A stretch of 45,605 bases of DNA from a virus. The DNA is taken from IMG/VR virus record IMGVR_UViG_3300045988_018139; one strand, given 5' to 3'. Shown here one piece after another: positions 1,258 to 32,787 of this stretch. The notes under the pieces are model-generated. The model searched no databases, was not told the DNA's origin, and was given only the letters and a program-made list of their open reading frames with translations. The translations under genes and the position numbers were made by a program. Numbering within the stretch: position 1 is the stretch's first letter; each line of letters opens with the position of its first letter.

Positions 1258-1836
1258 TCAAAGGGCGGTGTCCGCCCATATCGCCTTGATTTTCACCCAG
1301 CGCTCATGCCGGGCTTTGGCGGCCTTGACCTTGCGGGTCAGGCGGTTGTTGTTCTTGAGGGTTTCCACCACGGCGGGGTGACGGCTCTTGGGGTTGCTCA
1401 CCTTGCGCCAGCCGTCTGTAAATTCACGGGAGGCCAGTTTCCAGGCGTCCTCACTCTCCTGGATGGCTTGCTCCAGGTAGGCGGTCAGCCGGTCAATGGC
1501 CTGCCAGTTATCGAAGTCCCAGAGGTGCATCAGCTTGAACAGTTTGCGGGTGTTGGTGATGGTCAGGTCACAGAGCCGGTCAAGGTAGATGTCCGCCCGG
1601 AAAGTGTCCGCCTGGATGTGGACCAGAGTGTCCGGGTCAGTGAACATGGGGCAGTCCTCACAGCGGTCCCGGTCCGGGAGGGCGGAGATGTAGCTCCTGG
1701 GCTCCGCCACCTTGTATTGCACGGACCTGGAGCAGCACGGGGACACGGGGAAAACCGGGTCATGGTCCTTGCAGTCCAGGGGGACAAACGGGCGGAGGCG
1801 GGGCTGGGCGTGGGCACAGGTGTTGTATTTAAGCAT
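1258..1836 (-). CDS. Hypothetical protein, Cys-rich N-terminus (192 aa)
   Basis: The ATG at 1834-1836 overlaps the stop of the upstream nuclease gene, suggesting coupling. No family recognised. Confidence 0.6.
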   Translation of the reverse strand: MLKYNTCAHAQPRLRPFVPLDCKDHDPVFPVSPCCSRSVQYKVAEPRSYISALPDRDRCEDCPMFTDPDTLVHIQADTFRADIYLDRLCDLTITNTRKLFKLMHLWDFDNWQAIDRLTAYLEQAIQESEDAWKLASREFTDGWRKVSNPKSRHPAVVETLKNNNRLTRKVKAAKARHERWVKIKAIWADTAL

Positions 1837-3019
1837 CGGCGGCCACCCCGGCGAAGTCAGCAGCGGCGGGGCTGTATGCCTCCCGCTTGTCAGACGCAGG
1901 GGCAAGAGTGGGCTTGCCCAGGGGCTTGGTCACAAAGCTGCCGATTTTCTCCGCAAACTCCGCCTTGCCCATGAGCTTTTCCAGCTCGGTGAGGGTCTTG
2001 GGCTTGCGGTCATAGACCAGGGCCTCATCATAACCGGCGGCAATGACCGCCTGGATGGCGGCGTCCTGGTCGGTAAAGGTCCGATTGCTCCGGCCCGCCA
2101 CCAGTTTCCATCCGGGGATTTCCTTGCCAGCCAGCAGGGCCTCCGTGGCGTATTCCTCCAGGTCTTTGTACCATTGGACCAGCAGCTTTCCCCGTTCCAG
2201 CAGGTCACCGATTTCAGCATCCGTGAGGACCTTGCCCTCACCCTGGGGCTGTTTCCCGGCGGGCACACAGTCCTTGAAGTCCTCCAGGGCGGTGTTGACG
2301 TTGGCACGGGCCCGGCATTGAGCCTTGCCACGGCAAAAGCGGCAATGGTCACCGGGGACAAACTCACCCAGGCCGGAGTAGGCTTTCTGGGCAATGGGTT
2401 TGATGCTGTCCCCCCAGGCCCGCAGCTCATCAACGGTGATTTCATCCGTGGTGTAGCTGTCCAGCCGGGGCTGGTCAATGGTCATGCGGACCCGCTTGAT
2501 GGTGTCCCCGAACACGGGGGCGTAGCGGCGGAGAGCGCCCAGGGCATAGAGCCGCATTTGGGGATTGCCCACAGCGGACACGGGGACGCCCTTGCCGTGC
2601 TTGTAGTCCACGATGCTGAGGAGGTCGCCGCCGATGATGCAGCAGTCACAGGTGCCAAAGCCCTCCGGCACATAGTCCGAAAAATCCACCTGGACCTCAA
2701 CGGCCACGGTGGGGGCGGTGTCATAGGCCATGACCTGCTCCGTGATGTGCTCCAGGTAGAGGTCCGTGGTCTTGTCCATCTCCGGGTTGTAAAGCGGGTC
2801 TTTCTTGAGCTTGTTGAGCCGGGTGTTGTAGGTCCGGGTGCTCATGGGGGTGCATTTCTTGGTGACCTTGAGCTCACCAATGGCGTGGGCCAGGCGGCCC
2901 TCCTCCGCATATTCGCTGGTGCTTTCCGGCAGCCCCTCCTCAAAACGGGGGGCTGCCGTGCATACCATCCAGCGGGCGGCAGAGGATGCCGAAAGCAGGG
3001 CGTGCTTGACAGGGGGCAT
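1829..3019 (-). CDS. DUF2800-family PD-(D/E)XK (Cas4/RecB-like) nuclease
   Basis: It has an IVDYKHGKG core and a C-terminal Cys cluster (CRFCRGKAQC). AAGGAGG RBS is present. The neighbours are those usually found with DUF2800. Confidence 0.8.
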   Translation of the reverse strand: MPPVKHALLSASSAARWMVCTAAPRFEEGLPESTSEYAEEGRLAHAIGELKVTKKCTPMSTRTYNTRLNKLKKDPLYNPEMDKTTDLYLEHITEQVMAYDTAPTVAVEVQVDFSDYVPEGFGTCDCCIIGGDLLSIVDYKHGKGVPVSAVGNPQMRLYALGALRRYAPVFGDTIKRVRMTIDQPRLDSYTTDEITVDELRAWGDSIKPIAQKAYSGLGEFVPGDHCRFCRGKAQCRARANVNTALEDFKDCVPAGKQPQGEGKVLTDAEIGDLLERGKLLVQWYKDLEEYATEALLAGKEIPGWKLVAGRSNRTFTDQDAAIQAVIAAGYDEALVYDRKPKTLTELEKLMGKAEFAEKIGSFVTKPLGKPTLAPASDKREAYSPAAADFAGVAADA

Positions 3020-3031
3020 TGTGGCACCTCC

Positions 3032-3553
3032 TTAAATCTGAGCGCCCAGGGCCCGGAGCTCGGTGGCGAAAGCGCCATACTGCTCCGGCTGGAGCTGGGT
3101 GACGGCCTGCACGCCGTAGCGGCCCAGCAGGGCCAAAAGCTGCTCCATCTTCCCGGCGTCCACCAGGGAGGCACCTGCACGGGAGATTTGGTCCAGGGTG
3201 TAGGCAGGAGCGCTGGTCACCGGAACAGCGGGGGCCGGGGTGCTACCAGGGGCGGCAGATGTCGGGCCAGCAGTCGGCGCACTGGTCACAGGCATGGGAG
3301 AGGGGCTGGGGGCCGCCACAGGGGCCGCCATAGTGGGGGCAGGGGTCTGGGTAGGGTTTACCGGCGCAGGGCTCACAGGGGCCGCAGGAGCGGGCGCAGG
3401 GGCCGGTGCCGGGGTTGTGGGATAGCCGGACACGGGCAGGGGCTCATCAGGGACAAGCAGCGCCGGGTCGGGGCCGGAGGCAATGGCCTCCGCCAGCTTG
3501 AGGATAGAGGCGGCCAGGTCGGGGGCCTCAACGGTGATTTTCATTTCCATCAT
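3032..3553 (-). CDS. Hypothetical protein with a long Pro/Ala/Thr linker
   Basis: AAGGAGG lies 9 nt before ATGATG at 3548-3553. The protein has a structured N-terminus (MMEMKITVEAPDL...), a PAPAPAP-type linker and a helical C-terminal domain. Confidence 0.6.
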   Translation of the reverse strand: MMEMKITVEAPDLAASILKLAEAIASGPDPALLVPDEPLPVSGYPTTPAPAPAPAPAAPVSPAPVNPTQTPAPTMAAPVAAPSPSPMPVTSAPTAGPTSAAPGSTPAPAVPVTSAPAYTLDQISRAGASLVDAGKMEQLLALLGRYGVQAVTQLQPEQYGAFATELRALGAQI

Positions 3554-3647
3554 GGATGTCATCCTCCTTTGTTTCGTTTTCACAATCGCATTTCTCGCCG
3601 GGGTCCAGGTTGGCCCCGCAGTTCGGACAGGTCCAGTAGTACGGCAT
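3528..3647 (-). CDS. Small zinc-ribbon-like peptide (39 aa)
   Basis: Translation is MPYYWTCPNCGANLDPGEKCDCENETKEDD..., with CxxC...CxC. It sits directly after the SLT gene stop and has a GGAG upstream. It is below the ORF-track cutoff as an independent ORF. Confidence 0.4.
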   Translation of the reverse strand: MPYYWTCPNCGANLDPGEKCDCENETKEDDIHDGNENHR

Positions 3648-3654
3648 GGGGTCA

Positions 3655-4335
3655 TCACTCCAAAATGCTTGTCCAGTATTCAAAGCGGGCCATGACCTTG
3701 CGGGAGTGTTCGGTGCTGTATGTACCAGACGCCCACAGAGATTGAGCGCCGGAGGGGCCGCAGTTGTAGGCCATGACGGCCAGCTCCGGCTCCCCGTAGG
3801 CGGTGAGGTAGTCACCCAGCAGCATGACACCGGCCTCAATGTTCCCGGTGTAGGTCATGGGGTCAATGCCTTGCTCCAAAAACCACCCATGATTGACCTG
3901 GTTGATTTGCATGAGGCCGTAGTCATTGGTGCCACTTGTGGCATCCGGGTCAAAACGGCTTTCCACGTCCGCCACGGCCAGGGCCAGAGCGTAGGGGACG
4001 CCGTACTCCTCGCAGCAGGCCTGCATGGTTTCCTGGAGGTCGTAGGCCAGGAGGTTGCCGTCCGTCACAATGTCATCCCGCCAGAGGACCGGCTCCTCCG
4101 TGGGAGCCGGTGTTGCCGTGGGGGTTTCCGTGGCCTCTGGGGTCGGGGTGGTGCTCTCCAGCACCGGCTCCGGGAGGGTCATGGCGGCCTGGCTGGTGTG
4201 CCTGCCAGTAAAGAAACCGGCGGCGAAAATGCCAGCGCACACCAGCGCCAGCACAATGACCGGGCCGTAGTTCGGGCGGCGTTTCCGCCTGGCCCGGTGA
4301 CGGGGGGCTCTCTGGCCATATTCACAGATGGTCAT
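3655..4335 (-). CDS. Membrane-anchored lytic transglycosylase (SLT domain)
   Basis: SLT catalytic signature VADVESRFDP...NDYGLMQIN is present. There is an N-terminal basic stretch plus a TM segment (PVIVLALVCAGIFAAGFF) and a Thr/Pro linker. The ATG at 4333-4335 is preceded by AAGGGGTG. Confidence 0.8.
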   Translation of the reverse strand: MTICEYGQRAPRHRARRKRRPNYGPVIVLALVCAGIFAAGFFTGRHTSQAAMTLPEPVLESTTPTPEATETPTATPAPTEEPVLWRDDIVTDGNLLAYDLQETMQACCEEYGVPYALALAVADVESRFDPDATSGTNDYGLMQINQVNHGWFLEQGIDPMTYTGNIEAGVMLLGDYLTAYGEPELAVMAYNCGPSGAQSLWASGTYSTEHSRKVMARFEYWTSILE

Positions 4336-6367: not shown

Positions 6368-7408
6368 TCAGGCGGTCAAGAGCTCTTTCTCAAAGAGCAT
6401 GGCCGCCGATTTCCACCCCAGCAGCTTGCGGGGGTAGTTGTTCACCCACCTCTCTGCCGCCCTCACCTCCTCCGGCTTTACGGTGTCAAAGCTGGTGCCC
6501 TTGGGGAAAAACCGTCTAATCAGCCGGTTCATGTTCTCATTGGACCCCCGCTCAAAGGCGCTGTATGGGTGGCAGAAAAACACAATGGTCCGCTTGCCCT
6601 TGCGCCGGTGGGCGGCCTCGATACCCTCGAAGTCTTGAAATTCGCAGCCGTTGTCCACCGTGATGCTCTTGAACAGCTTATAGAACAACTTGCCAAAACG
6701 GCGCTCCAGGCTGTTGATGGCCTTGACCACGCTGGCCGCCGTGTGGTCCTCCAGGAGCATCACAATGCCCATGCGGGTCCGGCGCTCGGTGAGGACCAGC
6801 AGGGCTTTTTTGGAGCCCTTGCATCCCATGATACTGTCCATCTCCCAATGGCCGAAACTGCCCCGGCCTTTGACCTCCTGGGGGCGGTTCTCAATGCTTT
6901 TCCCGTGGGAGCTCCGGGCGGCCTGCTGTCTGCTTTTGGCGGAGTAGTGGCGGCGGCCCTTATTGTGCAGATGCTCTGGGGTGAGGTGGAGGAACACGTC
7001 CCCACGGTAGATGTAATTATAGAGCGTGTTCTCACATATCACGGTGTTATAAACCTCACCGTTGTTGCGGATTTCCGCAAGGGCGGCTCCGGGGGCAAAG
7101 CCTTGAACCATGACCAGCTCCTCCAGCCGTTGGACCAGGGCGTGGTCTTTGCCAATCTTGAGGTCCCGGCCTTTTTCTTTGAGAAAATCCCGGTATTTTC
7201 GCTCTGCCACTTCCGGGCAGTAAACCTCAATAAACTCATATTCGGAGGTTTGCTGGATGCAGAGGCCCCGGTTGATTTCATAGTAGATGGACCGCTCACA
7301 CTTGCCCAGAGCGCTGGCAATGGCGGTTTTGGTAAAGCCTTTTTTGAGCATCCGCTCCAGGGTCAGGCGTTGGTCCCAGGTGAAATGCTTGGCGTCTTTA
7401 TGGTTCAT
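6368..7408 (-). CDS. IS30-family DDE transposase/integrase (346 aa)
   Basis: N-terminal HTH (GFTKTAIASALGKCERSIYYEINRG) and catalytic-core segments GHWEMDSI...ITVDNGCEF...RGSNENMNRLIRRFFPKG are typical of IS30 transposases. GGAGGTG RBS is present. Confidence 0.9.
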   Translation of the reverse strand: MNHKDAKHFTWDQRLTLERMLKKGFTKTAIASALGKCERSIYYEINRGLCIQQTSEYEFIEVYCPEVAERKYRDFLKEKGRDLKIGKDHALVQRLEELVMVQGFAPGAALAEIRNNGEVYNTVICENTLYNYIYRGDVFLHLTPEHLHNKGRRHYSAKSRQQAARSSHGKSIENRPQEVKGRGSFGHWEMDSIMGCKGSKKALLVLTERRTRMGIVMLLEDHTAASVVKAINSLERRFGKLFYKLFKSITVDNGCEFQDFEGIEAAHRRKGKRTIVFFCHPYSAFERGSNENMNRLIRRFFPKGTSFDTVKPEEVRAAERWVNNYPRKLLGWKSAAMLFEKELLTA

Positions 7409-26889: not shown

Positions 26890-28062
26890 TTAGCCTCTGG
26901 AGAGGATGCGGGCAATGGGGATGGCCTTGTGGGCGATGTAGGAGCGGTCGTTTTCCTCCGCCTCGCCAGAGTGGACCAGGACCCAGTTGGCACCGTTGGA
27001 CAGCTCTGCATCCGTGGGGGAGAGAGTGGTCTGGCTGGCCTTTTCATAGGAGATACCATAGGGGGCAAAGACCTTGCGCTGACGGGTGTAGAGAGTGTCC
27101 ACGCCGCCGTCCGTCTTGGGGTCACGGGCCATTTCATAGGGGACCTTGGCACCAATGTCCTCAAAGCTGATTGCACCCTCACCCAGCACATAGGTGACAT
27201 ACTGAGTGCCGGGGACCACATAGCTGTCCGCCGCCGGGGTGCCCTCGCCAAAGTAGGGGGTGACCTCCGCCTGGTTAATCTGGCCAGCGGTAGCGCCGGA
27301 GGCCTTGACCTGGAGCGCTCCCTCATCGGAGGCGCTGGCGGGGAAATAGCCGTCCGTGGCGGGCATCCCATCATCCACCACAACGGTCTTGCCGTTCCAG
27401 GTGTAGAGGGTCAGGTCACGGGTCACGCCGTTCTTGTCGGTGTACTTGAGAGCGGTGAGCAGGTTGAGGTTTTCCAGGTTGGTGGCCACAACGGAGTGCA
27501 TGAACACCAGGGAAAAACGGCGCTTGCGGTCACCGCAGGCCTGGGCGGTGGCGCTGTTCATGGTGGTGGCCTCCATGTTGCCCGCCACCTCATAGGTGTG
27601 CTTGGACACAAACTCGGCGCTTTGGCCGCCGGTCATGGCAAAGACGCCCTTGAGGACGGCCAGGATGGTGTCCTGGTCAATGTCCTGCCAATACTCGGAA
27701 ACCTGCTGGGCCACATTGTCCATCCAGTCAATGCCGCCGGTGATGTCAAAGGAAAAATCCTTTTCAGTCCAGGCCTTGGCACGGCCTACCACCACAACAC
27801 CCTGCTCAAAGGTCTTGGTGGAGGTGGCGTCAATGTCGGTCTGGCCGTCATAGTTCACGGCATCGCCGTCCAGCAGGCCCCGCATGGCGATGCGGGCATA
27901 GCCGGTGCCGCCCTGGGTGCTGAAAACGTCCCGGATGTCGGGGTTGCCTGCCAGCGCTCTGGATTTCCGCATTTCATTGAGGCGGGTGCGGGGGATGCGG
28001 TCCACCGCATACTTGAAAGCCTGGGGATTGAAAGACTTGGCATCAAACTTGGTGTTAGGCAT
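26890..28062 (-). CDS. Major capsid protein
   Basis: 390 aa, following the scaffold gene. AAGGAAG RBS is present. The composition looks like a highly expressed gene. Confidence 0.8.
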   Translation of the reverse strand: MPNTKFDAKSFNPQAFKYAVDRIPRTRLNEMRKSRALAGNPDIRDVFSTQGGTGYARIAMRGLLDGDAVNYDGQTDIDATSTKTFEQGVVVVGRAKAWTEKDFSFDITGGIDWMDNVAQQVSEYWQDIDQDTILAVLKGVFAMTGGQSAEFVSKHTYEVAGNMEATTMNSATAQACGDRKRRFSLVFMHSVVATNLENLNLLTALKYTDKNGVTRDLTLYTWNGKTVVVDDGMPATDGYFPASASDEGALQVKASGATAGQINQAEVTPYFGEGTPAADSYVVPGTQYVTYVLGEGAISFEDIGAKVPYEMARDPKTDGGVDTLYTRQRKVFAPYGISYEKASQTTLSPTDAELSNGANWVLVHSGEAEENDRSYIAHKAIPIARILSRG

Positions 28063-28085: not shown

Positions 28086-28445
28086 TTAGTCGGTGTTGGT
28101 CTTGCGTTTACGGCCCTTTGGGGCCTCTTTGGTGCCGGTGGCATCACTGTCCTCCGGCTCATCCTCCGGGCCGTCCTGGGCCGCCTCTGTGCCCGCAGGG
28201 GCCAGACGGTCCATGACTTCCTGGACAATGGCCTCCGCAAGTTCCTGGGTCAGCCGGATGGCCAGCTCTTTGGCCATGGCATCCGTCAGCTCTTTCACGG
28301 AGGAGATATTGTCCGCAATGTACTGCACCACGGCCTCCTGGGTGCGGGGCAGGGATGCGGCGGGCTTGCCGGTCAGCTTGGCCGCCAGATTTCTCAAGGC
28401 GTCCTCAAAAGACACGGCTTTTGTGGGGGTTGTAATGTTTCGCAT
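28086..28445 (-). CDS. Hypothetical protein with acidic then basic C-terminal tail
   Basis: The ATG at 28443-28445 follows GAGGTG. It lies between scaffold and capsid. Confidence 0.55.
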   Translation of the reverse strand: MRNITTPTKAVSFEDALRNLAAKLTGKPAASLPRTQEAVVQYIADNISSVKELTDAMAKELAIRLTQELAEAIVQEVMDRLAPAGTEAAQDGPEDEPEDSDATGTKEAPKGRKRKTNTD

Positions 28446-28456
28446 GATTGCACCTC

Positions 28457-29107
28457 TCAATCCAGCTTTGCGTCAGGATTTTCGGCCAGGTACGCCGCCA
28501 GCTCAGAGTAGGACATCTCAGAGGGCTTTTTCCCCTCTCCGGGTTTCCGCCCGTCACCGCTCTCTCCGGGTTTCCAGCCCTCATACTTGGGGGCGCTCCC
28601 AAAGAGAAAGTCCGTGGAGGCGTCCTTTTTCAGAGCCTCAACTTTGGCGGCCAGTGTGATGCTCTCATCGCCCACCTTGGCCACCACCTTGCCGTCCACA
28701 ATCTTGGCGTCCTTGAGGTAGTCGGCCAGGACCGCTTTGACGGCCACGGTGTTCTTGGCTCCGGCGGCGGTGAGCTCGGCATCCACGGCAGAGGACAGCC
28801 GGACAGCGACCAGCTCTTTCTCATAGTTGGCCCGGTCCGCTTTGGCCTGCTGCTCCAGTTCGCCAATCTTGCGGGTCAGCTCCTCATTGTCGCCAGCGGA
28901 CTTTTTCAGCTCCTCAAGCTGCTTGGCGTGTCCCTTGGCGGCCTCCTCAAGCTGGCCCACCTGGGCCTCCAGCTCCTTGACACGGGTGTTTTTGGCGTTG
29001 AAGTCCGCACGGGCAACAAAGTCTTTGCCAATCGCCTGGCAGGCGGCGGCATCCATCTCCTCCGTGTAGGCCTCGCCAATGATTTCCTTGAGCCATAAAA
29101 GTTTCAT
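28457..29107 (-). CDS. Capsid scaffolding protein (GP20-like, coiled coil)
   Basis: The coiled-coil-rich sequence (KELEAQVGQLEEAAKGHAKQLEELKK...) and its position upstream of the capsid gene fit a scaffold. Confidence 0.75.
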   Translation of the reverse strand: MKLLWLKEIIGEAYTEEMDAAACQAIGKDFVARADFNAKNTRVKELEAQVGQLEEAAKGHAKQLEELKKSAGDNEELTRKIGELEQQAKADRANYEKELVAVRLSSAVDAELTAAGAKNTVAVKAVLADYLKDAKIVDGKVVAKVGDESITLAAKVEALKKDASTDFLFGSAPKYEGWKPGESGDGRKPGEGKKPSEMSYSELAAYLAENPDAKLD

Positions 29108-29206
29108 GTGTGTTACCTCCTGTTATCTGCTTTCCTTGTGTCCGGCCAGTCCCGGTATGGCAGCGCCCCTGGTAGTTTCCGCCGGGGCCCAGCGGTATTT
29201 GGGTAT

Positions 29207-29237
29207 GAAAAAAGCACCGTGCTTTTCAGCACGATGC
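29207..29237 (-). terminator. Rho-independent terminator after the 83-aa ORF
   Basis: On the minus strand the hairpin GCATCGTGC-tgaaaa-GCACGGTGC is followed by TTTTTTC. Confidence 0.6.
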
Positions 29238-29250
29238 TTTCATCATCGGG

Positions 29251-29502
29251 TCAGTTGAGGACATCCGGGTCCGGGTCCTCCAGCTCTGTCCAGAGCTCGG
29301 TGAGCGGCGTGTCACCCTGGAGGTCCGTGAGGACCTGCTCAATGGTGGCATCCGCCGGGGGTGAAAAGGCGGCGTCCTCCAGCTCATAGACAAAGCCGCC
29401 GCCCGGCTCCTCCCAGAAAAAGCTCCCGCCGTTCTTTTCGGCGTAGGCCGTGACGGCCTCCTGGAGCTCCTTGTGTGCAAAGTATTCAACGGGCGTCATC
29501 AT
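29251..29502 (-). CDS. Small acidic protein (83 aa), candidate immunity/inhibitor for the MuF C-terminal domain
   Basis: An ATGA overlap links it to the MuF stop. It is strongly acidic and is followed by a terminator. The function is inferred from context only. Confidence 0.6.
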   Translation of the reverse strand: MMTPVEYFAHKELQEAVTAYAEKNGGSFFWEEPGGGFVYELEDAAFSPPADATIEQVLTDLQGDTPLTELWTELEDPDPDVLN

Positions 29503-31265
29503 ATCATCCCTTTCAATAGTTTCTCAAACTCCGCCAAAGCGGTGGGGAAATACTGCTGCATCAATGCGTAGCGGTCAGCGTCAAACTGAGCCGCAAACAT
29601 GTGGGCAAAGGCCTCCTTTTCCAGCATCCCGGAGTATGTCCAGTAAACGGTGCGGTGGCCATAGTTGCCACGGGCCCTGTTGCGGGACAGCCCACCGAAC
29701 AGGTCAGAAACGGCGTTGTGCGTTGCATCCATGAGCTCCTGGGCCACGATTGCATAGGCGTCCGTCTTTTTTCTGGTGCCGTGCGCTTTCATGGTGGCCT
29801 TGATGTAGTTGTCGAAGTCCGCCCGCAGGGCGTTTCCGAAGTCTGCCGATTGCAGAGAGGTGAAACCGCTCCCTGGGCAAGACATAAAATCAACATAATG
29901 ACCGTGCTCATGGAAAAAGGTGGTTGCCGGGCCTCTGGGGTCGGTCATGTCGTTTGCAAAGTTCATGTTGACCTTTTGCGTGCGGCTGTCAAAATGCGGC
30001 GTGCCGGAGAAAGCCCCATCCGCCACGGAGCCGGGCTGCACATAGCGGTCAAAGACGGCTTGGGCGGTCTGATTTCCGGCGGAGTAGTGCTGCTCCAGGG
30101 CGTCCGTGTAACCGCTTGGAGCCGTGGGCAAGCTCTGCATCACGCTCTGAAAATGAGTGCCTGCCGTTGTGGCCATTGTACCACCAGCGGAGGCCGTTGG
30201 CAAACCTGGGGTTGGTCCCTGCACAAAGCTCTGCCGCCATTGCTCAAAGGTGGTGTTGGTGGGGACCTTTCTGGTGGTGCCGTCTGGGTTGCGTGTCCAG
30301 CGCTCTCCCAGGCCCACCATGTCCTCAAAGTAGGGAGCCGTGCAGCACCGGCACCACGGATGAAACGGCGGAGCGGTGAGCCCCACCTGGTAGTCCGACA
30401 TTTTGAACACCTTGCCGTCCAGCGCAGAGCACAGCCCGCAGGTGTCCCGGTCAAAGGAGGCCACAATCACATAGCGCTCCACGCCCAGGGAGTTGAAACA
30501 GTCCTTTTGAGCGGCGCTGGAGAAATAGGCGCTCTCTGTCATCACCAGGCGGCCCGCTTTGGAGCGGGACACCTCAAACTGCTTGGAGATGGCGGAGATG
30601 GCCCGGTCAGGAGCCTCCCCCCGTATAATCATTTGGGTGAGCTGGGTGTTTACGCTGTTCACAAGGCTCTGCTTGTTGGTCCAGCAGCGGTCACGGAAAG
30701 TCTGGCCGTCCGTGGTCCATGGCCGGGAGAGCACCTTTGTGATGGTGCCCTCGTTGACGGCCTGCATGGTCCAGCCCACGCCCAGGCCCCTTTGGACCTC
30801 ATAGGCCGTGTGGTAAAAGCTCCCGGCGTAGGATTGCCGAGCAGCCCGGTCTATGTAATCAAGCTGGTTGGAATATAGGAGCTCCGCCTGCTGCTGGAGC
30901 TGGATTTTGAGAGCGTCCAGCCGGGAGATGTGGACCCTGGCGCTGGCGTTCTCCAGCTCTTTCATCCAGGCCCCGGTGAGGGCGTTTTCCTCACCGTGCT
31001 TGATGTACTCCTCCACAGTCCAGCGAAACTCCGCCAGCTCATCACTGTTGAGCAGGCGCTTGGCGTCCGCCAGGGTGATGTCATTGTTGGCAGCAAAACG
31101 TCTGTACCAGGTGGAGAGCTGCCGCTCAATCTCTGCCTCAGCGGCTCGGAATTGGGCGTCCAGGTTCTCCACATAGGAGTAGGATTGGTCCAGCAGGGCG
31201 TCCTCCATGTTTTTCATGCGCTGGGCCCAATAGTCAGCGTTGCGCTGGAGGTTATTCCTGGGCAT
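29499..31265 (-). CDS. Head morphogenesis protein (SPP1 gp7/MuF family) fused to a C-terminal HExxH zincin-like domain
   Basis: MuF signature LTAPPFHPWCRCCTAPY lies at aa 299-315 of the listed ORF. After a Pro/Gly/Thr linker there is a domain of about 215 aa carrying FFHEHGHYVD (nt 29898-29912). The start is ATG at 31263-31265 or GTG at 31274. Confidence 0.8.
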   Translation of the reverse strand: MPRNNLQRNADYWAQRMKNMEDALLDQSYSYVENLDAQFRAAEAEIERQLSTWYRRFAANNDITLADAKRLLNSDELAEFRWTVEEYIKHGEENALTGAWMKELENASARVHISRLDALKIQLQQQAELLYSNQLDYIDRAARQSYAGSFYHTAYEVQRGLGVGWTMQAVNEGTITKVLSRPWTTDGQTFRDRCWTNKQSLVNSVNTQLTQMIIRGEAPDRAISAISKQFEVSRSKAGRLVMTESAYFSSAAQKDCFNSLGVERYVIVASFDRDTCGLCSALDGKVFKMSDYQVGLTAPPFHPWCRCCTAPYFEDMVGLGERWTRNPDGTTRKVPTNTTFEQWRQSFVQGPTPGLPTASAGGTMATTAGTHFQSVMQSLPTAPSGYTDALEQHYSAGNQTAQAVFDRYVQPGSVADGAFSGTPHFDSRTQKVNMNFANDMTDPRGPATTFFHEHGHYVDFMSCPGSGFTSLQSADFGNALRADFDNYIKATMKAHGTRKKTDAYAIVAQELMDATHNAVSDLFGGLSRNRARGNYGHRTVYWTYSGMLEKEAFAHMFAAQFDADRYALMQQYFPTALAEFEKLLKGMI

Positions 31266-32787
31266 CGCCGTCACCGCCGTCCTGGCCGGTCACGGGGTTG
31301 CCGCCAGAGCCGCCCCCGCCGTTCTGCCGGTTGGCCATAAAGGCGGCCTGGTAGGGGTCCGCCATGGCCTCCTCCTTTTCCTCCTTGATGCGCTGGAGCT
31401 CCTGCTCCGGGTCAGACACCCAGGGGTGCATTTTCACGATGGTTTCATCGGAGAGGATGCCCACAGAGTTCTTGCAGTTATTGATGGCCTCAGTTTCGTT
31501 GATGAGGACATCCCGGTCAAAGATGACCTTGACCTCCTCACCCTCAAAGCTCCGCTGGCCGGTGTTGGCCAGGTGTTTGTTGACAAACCAAAGCAGTTCC
31601 TCCATGGAGGCTTGAAACTCCATCTCAATGCCGTTGGCATCCAGGTCAACGGCAGAGTACATGCTCTGTATATTCATCTGGTTGGGGTTTCCGCTCATGC
31701 GGTCATCCTTGGCATCGTAGCCCCTGGCGTTCTCAATGATGGCGTCCTTGAGCAGAGAGAGCAGCACCTTGTAGTTTTCGGCGTTGACCTCAATCTGGAG
31801 CGTGTCCACGCCGCCCTCAGAGCCCTCAAAGGAGCGGACCTTGATGATGCCATAGGTGGCCAGGTTGGCCCGGAGCCGCCCCAGGTCCTCCCCGTCATAG
31901 TTCTTGATGACCAGGATGGTGGAGTGGATGTCCTCCTCCATCTGGTTGGCAAAGTTGGAAATGACATCGTTATAGGCATCTTGCAGACACTTGACCCTGG
32001 AGAGCAGGGGGATTTCATGGTGGGAGCTCTTAAAGCACACCAGGGGGATGCGCTCCCAATTATAGCCGGTTTCCTCGCCGGTCTGTGGGTCCGTGGTGGT
32101 GATATACGGCCCGGAGCGCTCATAATCGTCCGGCACCAGCGTCCCGTCATCATTGCGGATAAAGCAATCCACCCCGCCGCCGTGCATGACCTCCACCTTG
32201 ACCACATCCTTGGTCTGTTCGGTTTCGTCATACTCCAGCACCACATAGACGTGGACGGCAGCATCCAGGATGGTGTGGTCAGCATCCGCCCAAAAGGGCA
32301 GGACCTCATCCGCCGGAAAACGCTTGAAAGCCAGCTCCCCGTTTTCGTAGTAGGGATAAAGCCAGCTTTTGCCGCCTATCCAGGCCCCCTCACCAATGTT
32401 GTGCATGGTCCGGCGGAAACGGGGGCCGAACACAGAGGCCAGCGCCGCCGCATATTCCTTGTTTTCTGTGTCGAAAGAAAAGGGCTTGCCAAAGGAATAG
32501 TTGGTTTTCTGGTCCACCATCTTGGCATAGATGTTGTTGACCAGCCGGTTGTTGGGCAGGTGGTCCAGCACCTTGACCTTTCCGTCATCGTCCAGGGCAA
32601 TGCGCTTGCGGTGGAGCACGTCCTGGGCCCCGTCATAGTAGGCCTCGCCGTCAAGCTGCCGCTTGCGCTCTTTGGAGCCCAGCCAGGCCGTGATTTCAAG
32701 CTCCAAAAAGCGCTTGTCCGTCATGCCCCGGCGGAAATTCGTGGCCGCCCGGCCCACGCAGTCATCCCGTAAATTAAGCACCACCAC
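31252..32787 (-). CDS. Portal protein (SPP1 gp6-like)
   Basis: About 510 aa, located between TerL and MuF. N-terminal pattern is ...RQLDGEAYYDG...HRKR. GTG start lies 9 nt after AAGGAGG. Confidence 0.8.
   Translation of the reverse strand: MVVLNLRDDCVGRAATNFRRGMTDKRFLELEITAWLGSKERKRQLDGEAYYDGAQDVLHRKRIALDDDGKVKVLDHLPNNRLVNNIYAKMVDQKTNYSFGKPFSFDTENKEYAAALASVFGPRFRRTMHNIGEGAWIGGKSWLYPYYENGELAFKRFPADEVLPFWADADHTILDAAVHVYVVLEYDETEQTKDVVKVEVMHGGGVDCFIRNDDGTLVPDDYERSGPYITTTDPQTGEETGYNWERIPLVCFKSSHHEIPLLSRVKCLQDAYNDVISNFANQMEEDIHSTILVIKNYDGEDLGRLRANLATYGIIKVRSFEGSEGGVDTLQIEVNAENYKVLLSLLKDAIIENARGYDAKDDRMSGNPNQMNIQSMYSAVDLDANGIEMEFQASMEELLWFVNKHLANTGQRSFEGEEVKVIFDRDVLINETEAINNCKNSVGILSDETIVKMHPWVSDPEQELQRIKEEKEEAMADPYQAAFMANRQNGGGGSGGNPVTGQDGGDGDAQE

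Follow-up and report, generated by a model that had tools for sequence, protein, structure and literature searches.

IMG/VR virus record IMGVR_UViG_3300045988_018139, a near-complete phage genome of 45,605 nucleotides (nt) called the window here, encodes between its portal and scaffold genes a MuF-type head protein that ends in an HExxH zincin-like domain and is followed by an overlapping, acidic small open reading frame (ORF). Sister phages exchange the domain and the small ORF as a unit; the two co-occur and co-diverge across their family and lie between a predicted promoter and a terminator; the arrangement is probably that of a MuF-family polymorphic toxin locus. The head module has the gene order terminase, portal, MuF, small ORF, scaffold and capsid, of the contractile-tailed phage type, and the features on which the analysis draws are the following (aa, amino acids).

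26890..28062, minus strand: major capsid gene of the head module
28457..29107, minus strand: scaffold gene of the head module
29205..29246, minus strand: intrinsic terminator, a hairpin followed by T6, marking the 3' boundary of the cassette and belonging to the phage backbone
29251..29502, minus strand: acidic ORF of 83 aa, a putative immunity protein or inhibitor, ATGA-coupled to the MuF gene
29257..30236, minus strand: exchangeable cassette (linker with internal promoter, HExxH domain, small ORF), delimited by a gap in blastn homology
29499..31274, minus strand: MuF ORF, 591 aa from a GTG start, lying between the portal and scaffold genes
29502..30164, minus strand: HExxH zincin-like domain, aa 371-591, about 220 aa, supported by AlphaFold, Foldseek and a profile match
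29613..29657, minus strand: GH(540)xxxY(544)W...E(554)AFAH segment, with a candidate third metal ligand and candidate catalytic residues
29898..29912, minus strand: HEHGH motif (H455, E456, H459, then D462), from the alignment of 143 representatives
30175..30203, minus strand: predicted sigma-70-like promoter (TTGCCA, 17 nt, TGgTACAAT) in linker-coding DNA at the 5' edge of the cassette
30237..31274, minus strand: MuF/SPP1 gp7-type head-morphogenesis N-terminal region, aa 1-346, the conserved carrier
31252..32787, minus strand: portal gene, the 5' neighbour of the MuF gene

The N-terminal part of the MuF protein is recognised by Pfam PF04233 (Phage_Mu_F; aa 207-312, E 1.8e-14, above the gathering score), by TIGR01641 (phageSPP1_gp7; E 4.7e-22) and by minor-head PHROGs, among them phrog_115 at E 4e-113, and phrog_4728 matches the protein over its full length. 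These matches agree with the MuF/SPP1 gp7 N-terminus described in the initial annotation, and the PPFHPWCRCC motif lies where that account had put it. An alternative start at the ATG at 31265 (codon 4) would give a protein of 588 aa, the length called in relatives. The carrier region ends in the junction motif TFEQW, and the MuF domain is followed by a linker of Pro, Gly, Thr and Ala, GPTPGLPTASAGGTMATTAG, in which residues 353-370 are disordered in the AlphaFold model (predicted local distance difference test, pLDDT, <50). Two further observations made from the letters alone hold equally well: the zincin-like HExxH domain behind this linker (FFHEHGHYVD, with the HEHGH codons at 29912..29898 and invariant H, E and H) and the very acidic 83-aa ORF overlapping the MuF stop codon. 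In that overlap the ATG of the small ORF (29502-29500) and the TGA of the MuF gene (29501-29499) share the sequence ATGA, and the encoded protein has 19 acidic and 2 basic residues and an isoelectric point (pI) of 4.05.

An indication of what this arrangement represents comes from closely related phages in which it has been replaced. Viral contigs searched with the MuF N-terminus alone yielded 75 sister-phage loci (73-99% identity), in which the HExxH domain and a small-ORF homologue were either both present (28 loci) or both absent (47 loci), with no mixed case, and the unrelated C-terminal domains sit on MuF N-termini 73-87% identical to that of the window. In blastn comparisons with L172, L187, L179, L210, L219 and L173, homology extends through the portal and MuF genes and stops at 30237-30322, reaching as far as 30237, the codon of W346 in TFEQW; there is no similarity inside the cassette, and homology returns at 29240-29256, beyond the stop codon of the small ORF. 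Because homology breaks at 30237 and returns at about 29256, the linker, the domain and the small ORF constitute a single unit of exchange. The composition of the cassette is not anomalous (GC 0.589 against 0.595 for the whole window). The replacement domains in the 47 loci include PF15644 (Gln_amidase, Tox-PL1), a papain-fold glutamine-deamidase polymorphic toxin, and one that is possibly DUF4258-like. Alternative cassettes on the same MuF backbone in sister phages L210, L179 and L172 are built from an unknown domain with a Cys_rich_CPCC ORF behind it, from another HExxH domain (HEAGH), different from and shorter than the window's, with a 65-aa ORF, and from PF15644 with a 69-aa acidic ORF.

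The pairing of domain and small ORF holds well beyond these sister phages. Genomes and viral contigs supplied 146 ORFs in which the C-terminus of the domain is complete, and behind 144 of these lies a coupled ORF of 64-99 aa that begins no more than a few nt from the stop codon; 94 of these small ORFs have an ATGA-type overlap, and their median pI is 4.39. The reverse search, starting from the small ORF, found the domain ending at its start codon in all 34 of 34 loci. Pairwise identities of the two partners are correlated (r = 0.85, Mantel 0/500), with the small ORF diverging faster (55% identity where the domain has 82%). AlphaFold gives the 83-aa protein a compact alpha/beta structure and leaves its tail disordered (pLDDT 84). 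The final residue on this tail is conserved within each of two small-ORF clusters, as Tyr in 57/63 sequences of one and Asp in 44/45 of the other. These BLAST clusters were joined unconvincingly by hhalign (probability 10%) and are linked only through a duplicated protein at locus L149, with scores of 35 bits for one cluster and 12.9 bits for the other. The 83-aa protein has no match in Pfam, NCBIfam or PADLOC and no fold match in PDB, and the same searches revealed no DNA-binding or autoregulatory antitoxin domain in it.

In 143 diverse representatives of the domain family, H455, E456, H459 and H540 never vary, so HEHGH is not a chance occurrence of HExxH, and D442, D462, D524, Y544, W545 and E554 are each conserved in at least 90% of them. 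The AlphaFold model (pLDDT 87; predicted template modelling score, pTM, 0.85) has the HExxH residues on model helix 99-112 and E554 on a later helix, 198-210. The domain has no match in Pfam at E up to 10 and none in NCBIfam or PADLOC, and PDB sequence searches with the single sequence, a close-homologue profile or a full-length profile returned nothing useful for it. With a trimmed, diverse, domain-only profile, anthrax lethal factor was the sole PDB match at E <=0.01 (8.5e-4 to 2e-3), aligned over 88 positions through HEFGHAVDDYAG, and PPEP-1 came next at E 0.46. The top 24 PDB matches from Foldseek are all anthrax lethal factor or Pro-Pro endopeptidases (MEROPS family M34). The resemblance to toxin-type zincins noted from the motif is thus upheld, to the extent that the nearest solved relatives are the M34 zincins lethal factor and PPEP-1, both of them weak matches; the fold searches that had been proposed for the pair led to these two proteins at sub-significant scores for the domain and to no PDB match for the 83-aa protein. 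Y544 and E554 (conserved in at least 90%, E554 being helical) are spaced differently from the corresponding residues of lethal factor and PPEP-1. Sequence profile and predicted model together suggest a divergent lethal-factor-like zincin, remote from M34 and with membership of that family proper not established.

The domain family is large. A profile search of 1.84 billion cluster representatives returned, at E up to 1e-3, 1624 proteins that each represent a cluster at 50% identity, and in the 150 best of these 1624 matches the domain is always C-terminal, in proteins of ~200-670 aa. Three proteins with unusual N-termini on the domain (P0004, P0005 and P0009) look like assembly chimeras, not new architectures, and were set aside; they join methyltransferase-like, DUF2800 or terminase pieces to the HExxH domain, and the terminase peptide of P0005 is identical to the TerL of the window. 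Apparently split MuF and domain genes at L011 and L010 lie on contigs with 2.3x coverage or Ns and were likewise not used as firm evidence.

Neither MuF nor a phage genome is the exclusive setting of the pair. Among 108 representatives, the carriers of the domain include PF06152 (31), PF04233 (22), VG15 (5) and eCIS_core (1), the last being a DUF4157-type protein named for the extracellular contractile injection systems (eCIS; P0143, L149:1089-3209) with the HExxH domain at its C-terminus. The 135-aa ORF that follows P0143 matches the small-ORF profile twice (35 bits), a tandem duplication of the small-ORF fold. Stand-alone pairs of domain and small ORF occur among RecD2, MnmA, FeoB and oxidoreductase genes in metagenome-assembled genomes (MAGs) of Erysipelotrichaceae and Clostridia, including a triple tandem array in which each domain gene has its own small ORF (L045:236-3672, Erysipelotrichaceae MAG MO.1_4). 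The middle copy of this array is possibly inactive, reading HDHGH instead of HEHGH, and the same MAG holds further domain copies at L049 and L058. At L009:5842-7415 (GCA_045540435.1), a truncated Phage_min_cap2 fragment with the domain, small ORF, promoter and terminator is surrounded by ProRS, phosphoglycerate mutase, kinase and ABC transporter genes and looks like a cassette remnant outside a prophage. A further locus, L227:2900-3252, retains only the last ~31 residues of the domain before the small ORF, directly after a lysis module, and reflects either genome rearrangement or a contig that is chimeric. The polymorphic-toxin/immunity architecture proposed in the initial annotation is borne out by joint exchange, by co-occurrence in both search directions, by the other carriers and by the stand-alone pairs.

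The same account had also described a terminator private to the pair. A terminator is present and well supported (-26.3 kcal/mol, z = -7.4, equalled by 0/200 shuffles), and of 106 unique regions downstream of the small ORF 87 contain a terminator-like hairpin with a T-tract, compared with 6.8% of random windows, the stems among these regions having many different sequences. The claim of privacy does not stand. In 21 of 27 sister phages the same hairpin as in the window follows an unrelated cassette, before the scaffold gene, and the terminator is therefore an element of the backbone.

The 5' edge of the cassette carries a feature that had gone unremarked, a conserved promoter-like sequence within the linker-coding DNA. 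A site scoring at least 9/12 is found in 77 of 86 unique fused loci, and in 62 of these 77 its position is fixed, with the -10 box ending no further than ~30 nt from where the domain begins; TTGACA, TATAAT and TACAAT are the most frequent hexamers. Stricter rules, which ask for at least 10/12, still find a site in 34 of 49 independent clusters of linker DNA, against a background of 2.1%. The hexamers persist across loci whose encoded linker peptide varies, and in the window the motif is written in rare codons (GGT 9%, TTG 6%, CCA 8%, ACA 6.5%), which together point to selection at the level of DNA. Strong promoter-like sites also lie just past the MuF junction on unrelated cassettes of the same backbone (30 of 38 unique cases). 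The predicted promoter, the cassette and the terminator look like one insulated transcription unit, and with a promoter of its own and a backbone terminator the small ORF could be transcribed independently of the late operon. A second sigma-70-like match in the window (29498-29527, minus strand; TTGAGA, 18 nt, TATGAT), whose -10 box overlaps the start of the small ORF, was treated as a chance occurrence.

The remainder of the window encodes a DNA polymerase, primase-helicase, methyltransferase, Gp2.5-like single-stranded DNA-binding protein and endolysin. The nearest database phage is MT835552, an unannotated 'Bacteriophage sp.' from human faeces with 79% identity, and relatives occur in genomes of Oscillospiraceae, Ruminococcaceae, Acutalibacter and Flintibacter and, at greater distance, of Lachnospiraceae, Paenibacillus and Erysipelotrichaceae, where they sit in large contigs of isolate genomes (e.g., Acutalibacter, Paenibacillus and Coprococcus). 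Three other genes should be mentioned. An IS30-like DDE protein at 6368-7408 (minus strand; HTH_38 and rve, phrog_4646 'transposase') could be an insertion sequence or an integration enzyme of the phage itself. A 677-aa ORF at 1712-3745 lies on the plus strand, whereas most genes are on the other, and is matched by neither PHROG nor Pfam. A 124-aa ORF at 28086-28460 (minus strand), placed between the genes for scaffold and major capsid, lacks a family match, and in relatives its position is occupied by an ORF of 115-121 aa.

The locus displays the genomic hallmarks by which MuF polymorphic toxins have been defined (PMC3482391, PMC5576092), and on this basis we read it as a MuF-family polymorphic toxin, or effector, locus with a probability of roughly two in three. 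The observations behind this reading are the architecture, the exchange between sister phages, the co-occurrence and co-divergence of the partners, the carrier-independent and stand-alone copies, and the conservation of promoter, terminator and catalytic motif. As a toxin locus it might work as follows. The MuF domain would act as a head-internal, portal-associated carrier that holds exchangeable cargo by a disordered linker, the cargo being a zinc-metallopeptidase-like domain of ~220 aa with a putative core of HExxH, D462, H540, Y544 and E554. The fusion would be packaged in few copies and ejected with the DNA, after which the protease would become active in the cytoplasm of the recipient. 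In the producing cell the 83-aa protein would bind the domain as its cognate neutraliser, whether this is called an immunity protein, antitoxin or inhibitor, and may do so through the flexible tail with its family-conserved last residue. The internal promoter and the backbone terminator would allow the small ORF, and possibly a free domain, to be transcribed apart from the late operon, for example in a lysogen, and the terminator would prevent read-through into the scaffold and capsid genes.

Several points weigh against this reading. We infer that the domain binds zinc, cleaves protein and is toxic, that the fusion is packaged and injected, that the small protein inhibits the domain and that the promoter is active. 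No Pfam peptidase model matches the domain, either in the window or in the 108 relatives; the Foldseek matches are below significance (E 0.36-2, probability up to 0.72, template modelling (TM) score 0.42-0.47), and the profile match to lethal factor (E ~1e-3) spans only the N-terminal half of the domain. The small protein of the window ends in Asn and not in the usual Tyr of its family. A Shine-Dalgarno sequence precedes the next in-frame ATG after the promoter in only 5 of 77 loci, which leaves the small ORF as the most plausible product of an internal transcript. A single 3.8-kb metagenomic contig provides the link to eCIS. There is no tyrosine or serine integrase among the window ORFs scanned, and a temperate lifestyle is thus shown only for relatives.

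The alternative that shares most with the toxin reading, and that we regard as unlikely though worth serious consideration, is that the domain is an injected protease of host takeover or anti-defence and does not inhibit growth: it would cleave a specific host protein, of defence or regulation, so as to favour infection or sway the choice of lysis or lysogeny, and the small protein would only silence or chaperone it in the producer. All of the architectural evidence fits this account as well as it fits a toxin. Lethal factor and PPEP-1 are highly specific endopeptidases, as such a role would have it, and peptidase-type MuF cargos have been proposed to be low in toxicity and to influence the lysogeny decision (Jamet et al., PMC5576092). 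From sequence alone the two accounts are inseparable; the stand-alone pairs among housekeeping genes, some of them in tandem, and the related domain on an eCIS_core scaffold nevertheless suggest a general toxin/antitoxin logic more than a takeover function specific to phages. The same stand-alone copies could be taken to indicate a selfish toxin-antitoxin, or addiction, module nested in muf that stabilises the prophage from its own promoter, with fusion to MuF and delivery being incidental. The cassette's position between an internal promoter and a terminator is compatible with such a module, as are the L009 remnant in its non-phage context and the traits of type II toxin-antitoxin systems seen here (an overlapping gene pair, stand-alone occurrence in chromosomes and a small acidic partner), and the C-terminal toxin/immunity pairs that Rhs proteins express from internal promoters offer a precedent (PMC7043789). 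Hundreds of clusters and at least three carrier families nevertheless keep the domain fused in frame to MuF-type carriers, which indicates selection for delivery. Moreover, a ribosome-binding site from which a free domain could be made occurs at few loci, and the partner lacks a DNA-binding antitoxin domain, so that we consider an addiction module decidedly unlikely.

Two further explanations concern the domain itself. That HExxH belongs to some other metal-dependent chemistry, or to a non-catalytic fold, appears highly improbable: it would account for the lack of a peptidase match in Pfam or NCBIfam and for an M34 structural similarity below significance, and there are HExxH enzymes whose chemistry is non-hydrolytic (PMC12636437), but the H, E and H are invariant, D462, H540, Y544 and E554 are near-invariant or invariant in 143 sequences, and two independent methods give lethal factor and PPEP-1 as the best solved relatives, aligned through HEFGHAVDDYAG. 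A morphogenetic protease, serving in head maturation or in the processing of MuF or scaffold with the small ORF as its assembly chaperone, is barely plausible. The genes do lie between portal and scaffold in a head module without a recognisable prohead protease, and phrog_595, which matches the MuF N-terminus, is labelled a head maturation protease; this match does not reach the HExxH domain, however, and the pair is found outside phages too. Above all, in close relatives the portal, scaffold and capsid genes are the same but the cassette has given way to unrelated domains such as the glutamine deamidase, and a cassette that is replaced in collinear phages is dispensable for assembly, which argues strongly against a morphogenetic role.

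If the toxin-locus reading is extended, each MuF toxin cassette in this phage group, and probably more widely, might be an insulated promoter-toxin-immunity-terminator unit inside a head gene, an idea that is possible but doubtful and is offered tentatively. Such a unit would have a dual output: the late transcript would yield an injected, MuF-tethered, lethal-factor-like protease, and the internal promoter would run a toxin-antitoxin or immunity module in the lysogen. The acidic partner of ~80 aa would in that case found a new family of inhibitors that block the protease with a C-terminal tail ending in Tyr or Asp. MuF toxins are abundant in phages of human-gut Firmicutes, yet experiments have addressed only two of their enzymatic types (Apk2 and Bxa), and a family of at least 1,600 clusters at 50% identity, together with its partner family, makes a class of phage-delivered proteases testable. 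The junction promoter and terminator offer a checkable answer to how a lysogen might express immunity while the late operon is silent and, as they mark the edges of the cassette, can be used for mining new toxin-immunity pairs.

It should be noted that parts of this picture have precedents. MuF toxins, including metallopeptidase types, and lethal-factor-like domains on Photorhabdus virulence cassette (PVC) and eCIS systems have already been described. The domain family and its partner family, unnamed in any library, are provisionally new, and the carrier-independent and stand-alone distribution of the pair appears to be new, as does the conserved junction promoter that frames cassettes with the terminator as an insulated unit. 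Short MuF proteins such as SPP1 gp7 and phage Mu gpF share the homologous N-terminal domain and the place beside the portal gene, but are themselves without HExxH cargo, cognate small ORF or cassette. Another phage family of zincin-like metallopeptidases, found in polyvalent proteins, has been linked to lethal factor by HHpred (Iyer et al. 2017, PMC5512222). Its members are virion-packaged phage proteins, as the window protein would be, and share with it a zincin HExxH followed three residues on by Asp; the window's domain differs in lacking a detectable Pfam match, and the window protein has a simple make-up of two domains and a small partner of its own, unlike those giant multidomain proteins. 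Lethal factor and PPEP-1 (PPEP-1/Zmp1; M34) share with the domain the HExxHxxD motif, lethal factor having HEFGHAVDDYAG, the beta-strands before HExxH and, as candidate counterparts, a downstream Tyr and Glu. The domain departs from them in a helical insertion of ~80 residues between the HExxH helix and the Y/E segment and in the additional invariant His540, and the similarity is marginal (E ~1e-3, TM ~0.45).

With regard to delivery, Tox-ALF-metallopeptidase domains occur on PVC/eCIS toxins (PMC3482391), and one relative of the window's domain is fused to eCIS_core in the same delivery context; the carriers in the window group are of MuF type and the partner is an acidic protein of ~80 aa, not Imm-SuFu. 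Salmonella Rhs toxins have internal promoters that express them as toxin-antitoxin modules of type II (Starsta et al. 2020, PMC7043789) and share with the window a promoter within the toxin ORF, just upstream of the C-terminal domain, which can uncouple the transcription of toxin and immunity from that of the delivery part. Rhs toxins are delivered through the type VI secretion system and not a phage head, the promoter of the window is a predicted one, and a ribosome-binding site for the free toxin is mostly absent in the window family. The closest comparison is with the MuF polymorphic toxins themselves (Zhang et al. 2012, PMC3482391; Jamet et al. 2017, PMC5576092), for which downstream immunity proteins are documented (PMC5576092, PMC11699363). 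Unspecified metallopeptidase types make up 20% of 191 MuF toxins in Jamet et al. (PMC5576092), and no report of a characterised metallopeptidase MuF toxin was found in the literature. The Ct_MAD profile of Jamet et al. was built from extensions that match the C-terminal region of COG2369 and is thereby tied to the MuF-C region of phage Mu F, which has been assigned to the PBECR RNase fold (Iyer et al.). The window's domain and partner differ from the described toxins in matching no Pfam, NCBIfam or PADLOC model, and Jamet et al. make no mention of an internal promoter and terminator flanking the cassette. What is shared is an N-terminal MuF domain, a variable C-terminus with a known or putative enzyme and one or more small downstream ORFs with a known or putative neutralising role, all within head-morphogenesis modules of phages from gut Firmicutes or Bacteroidales. 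By this analogy the window locus resembles the logic of the experimentally studied toxins Apk2 and Bxa, a (p)ppApp synthetase and an ADP-ribosyltransferase (PMC11699363), with a putative protease in place of these enzymes.

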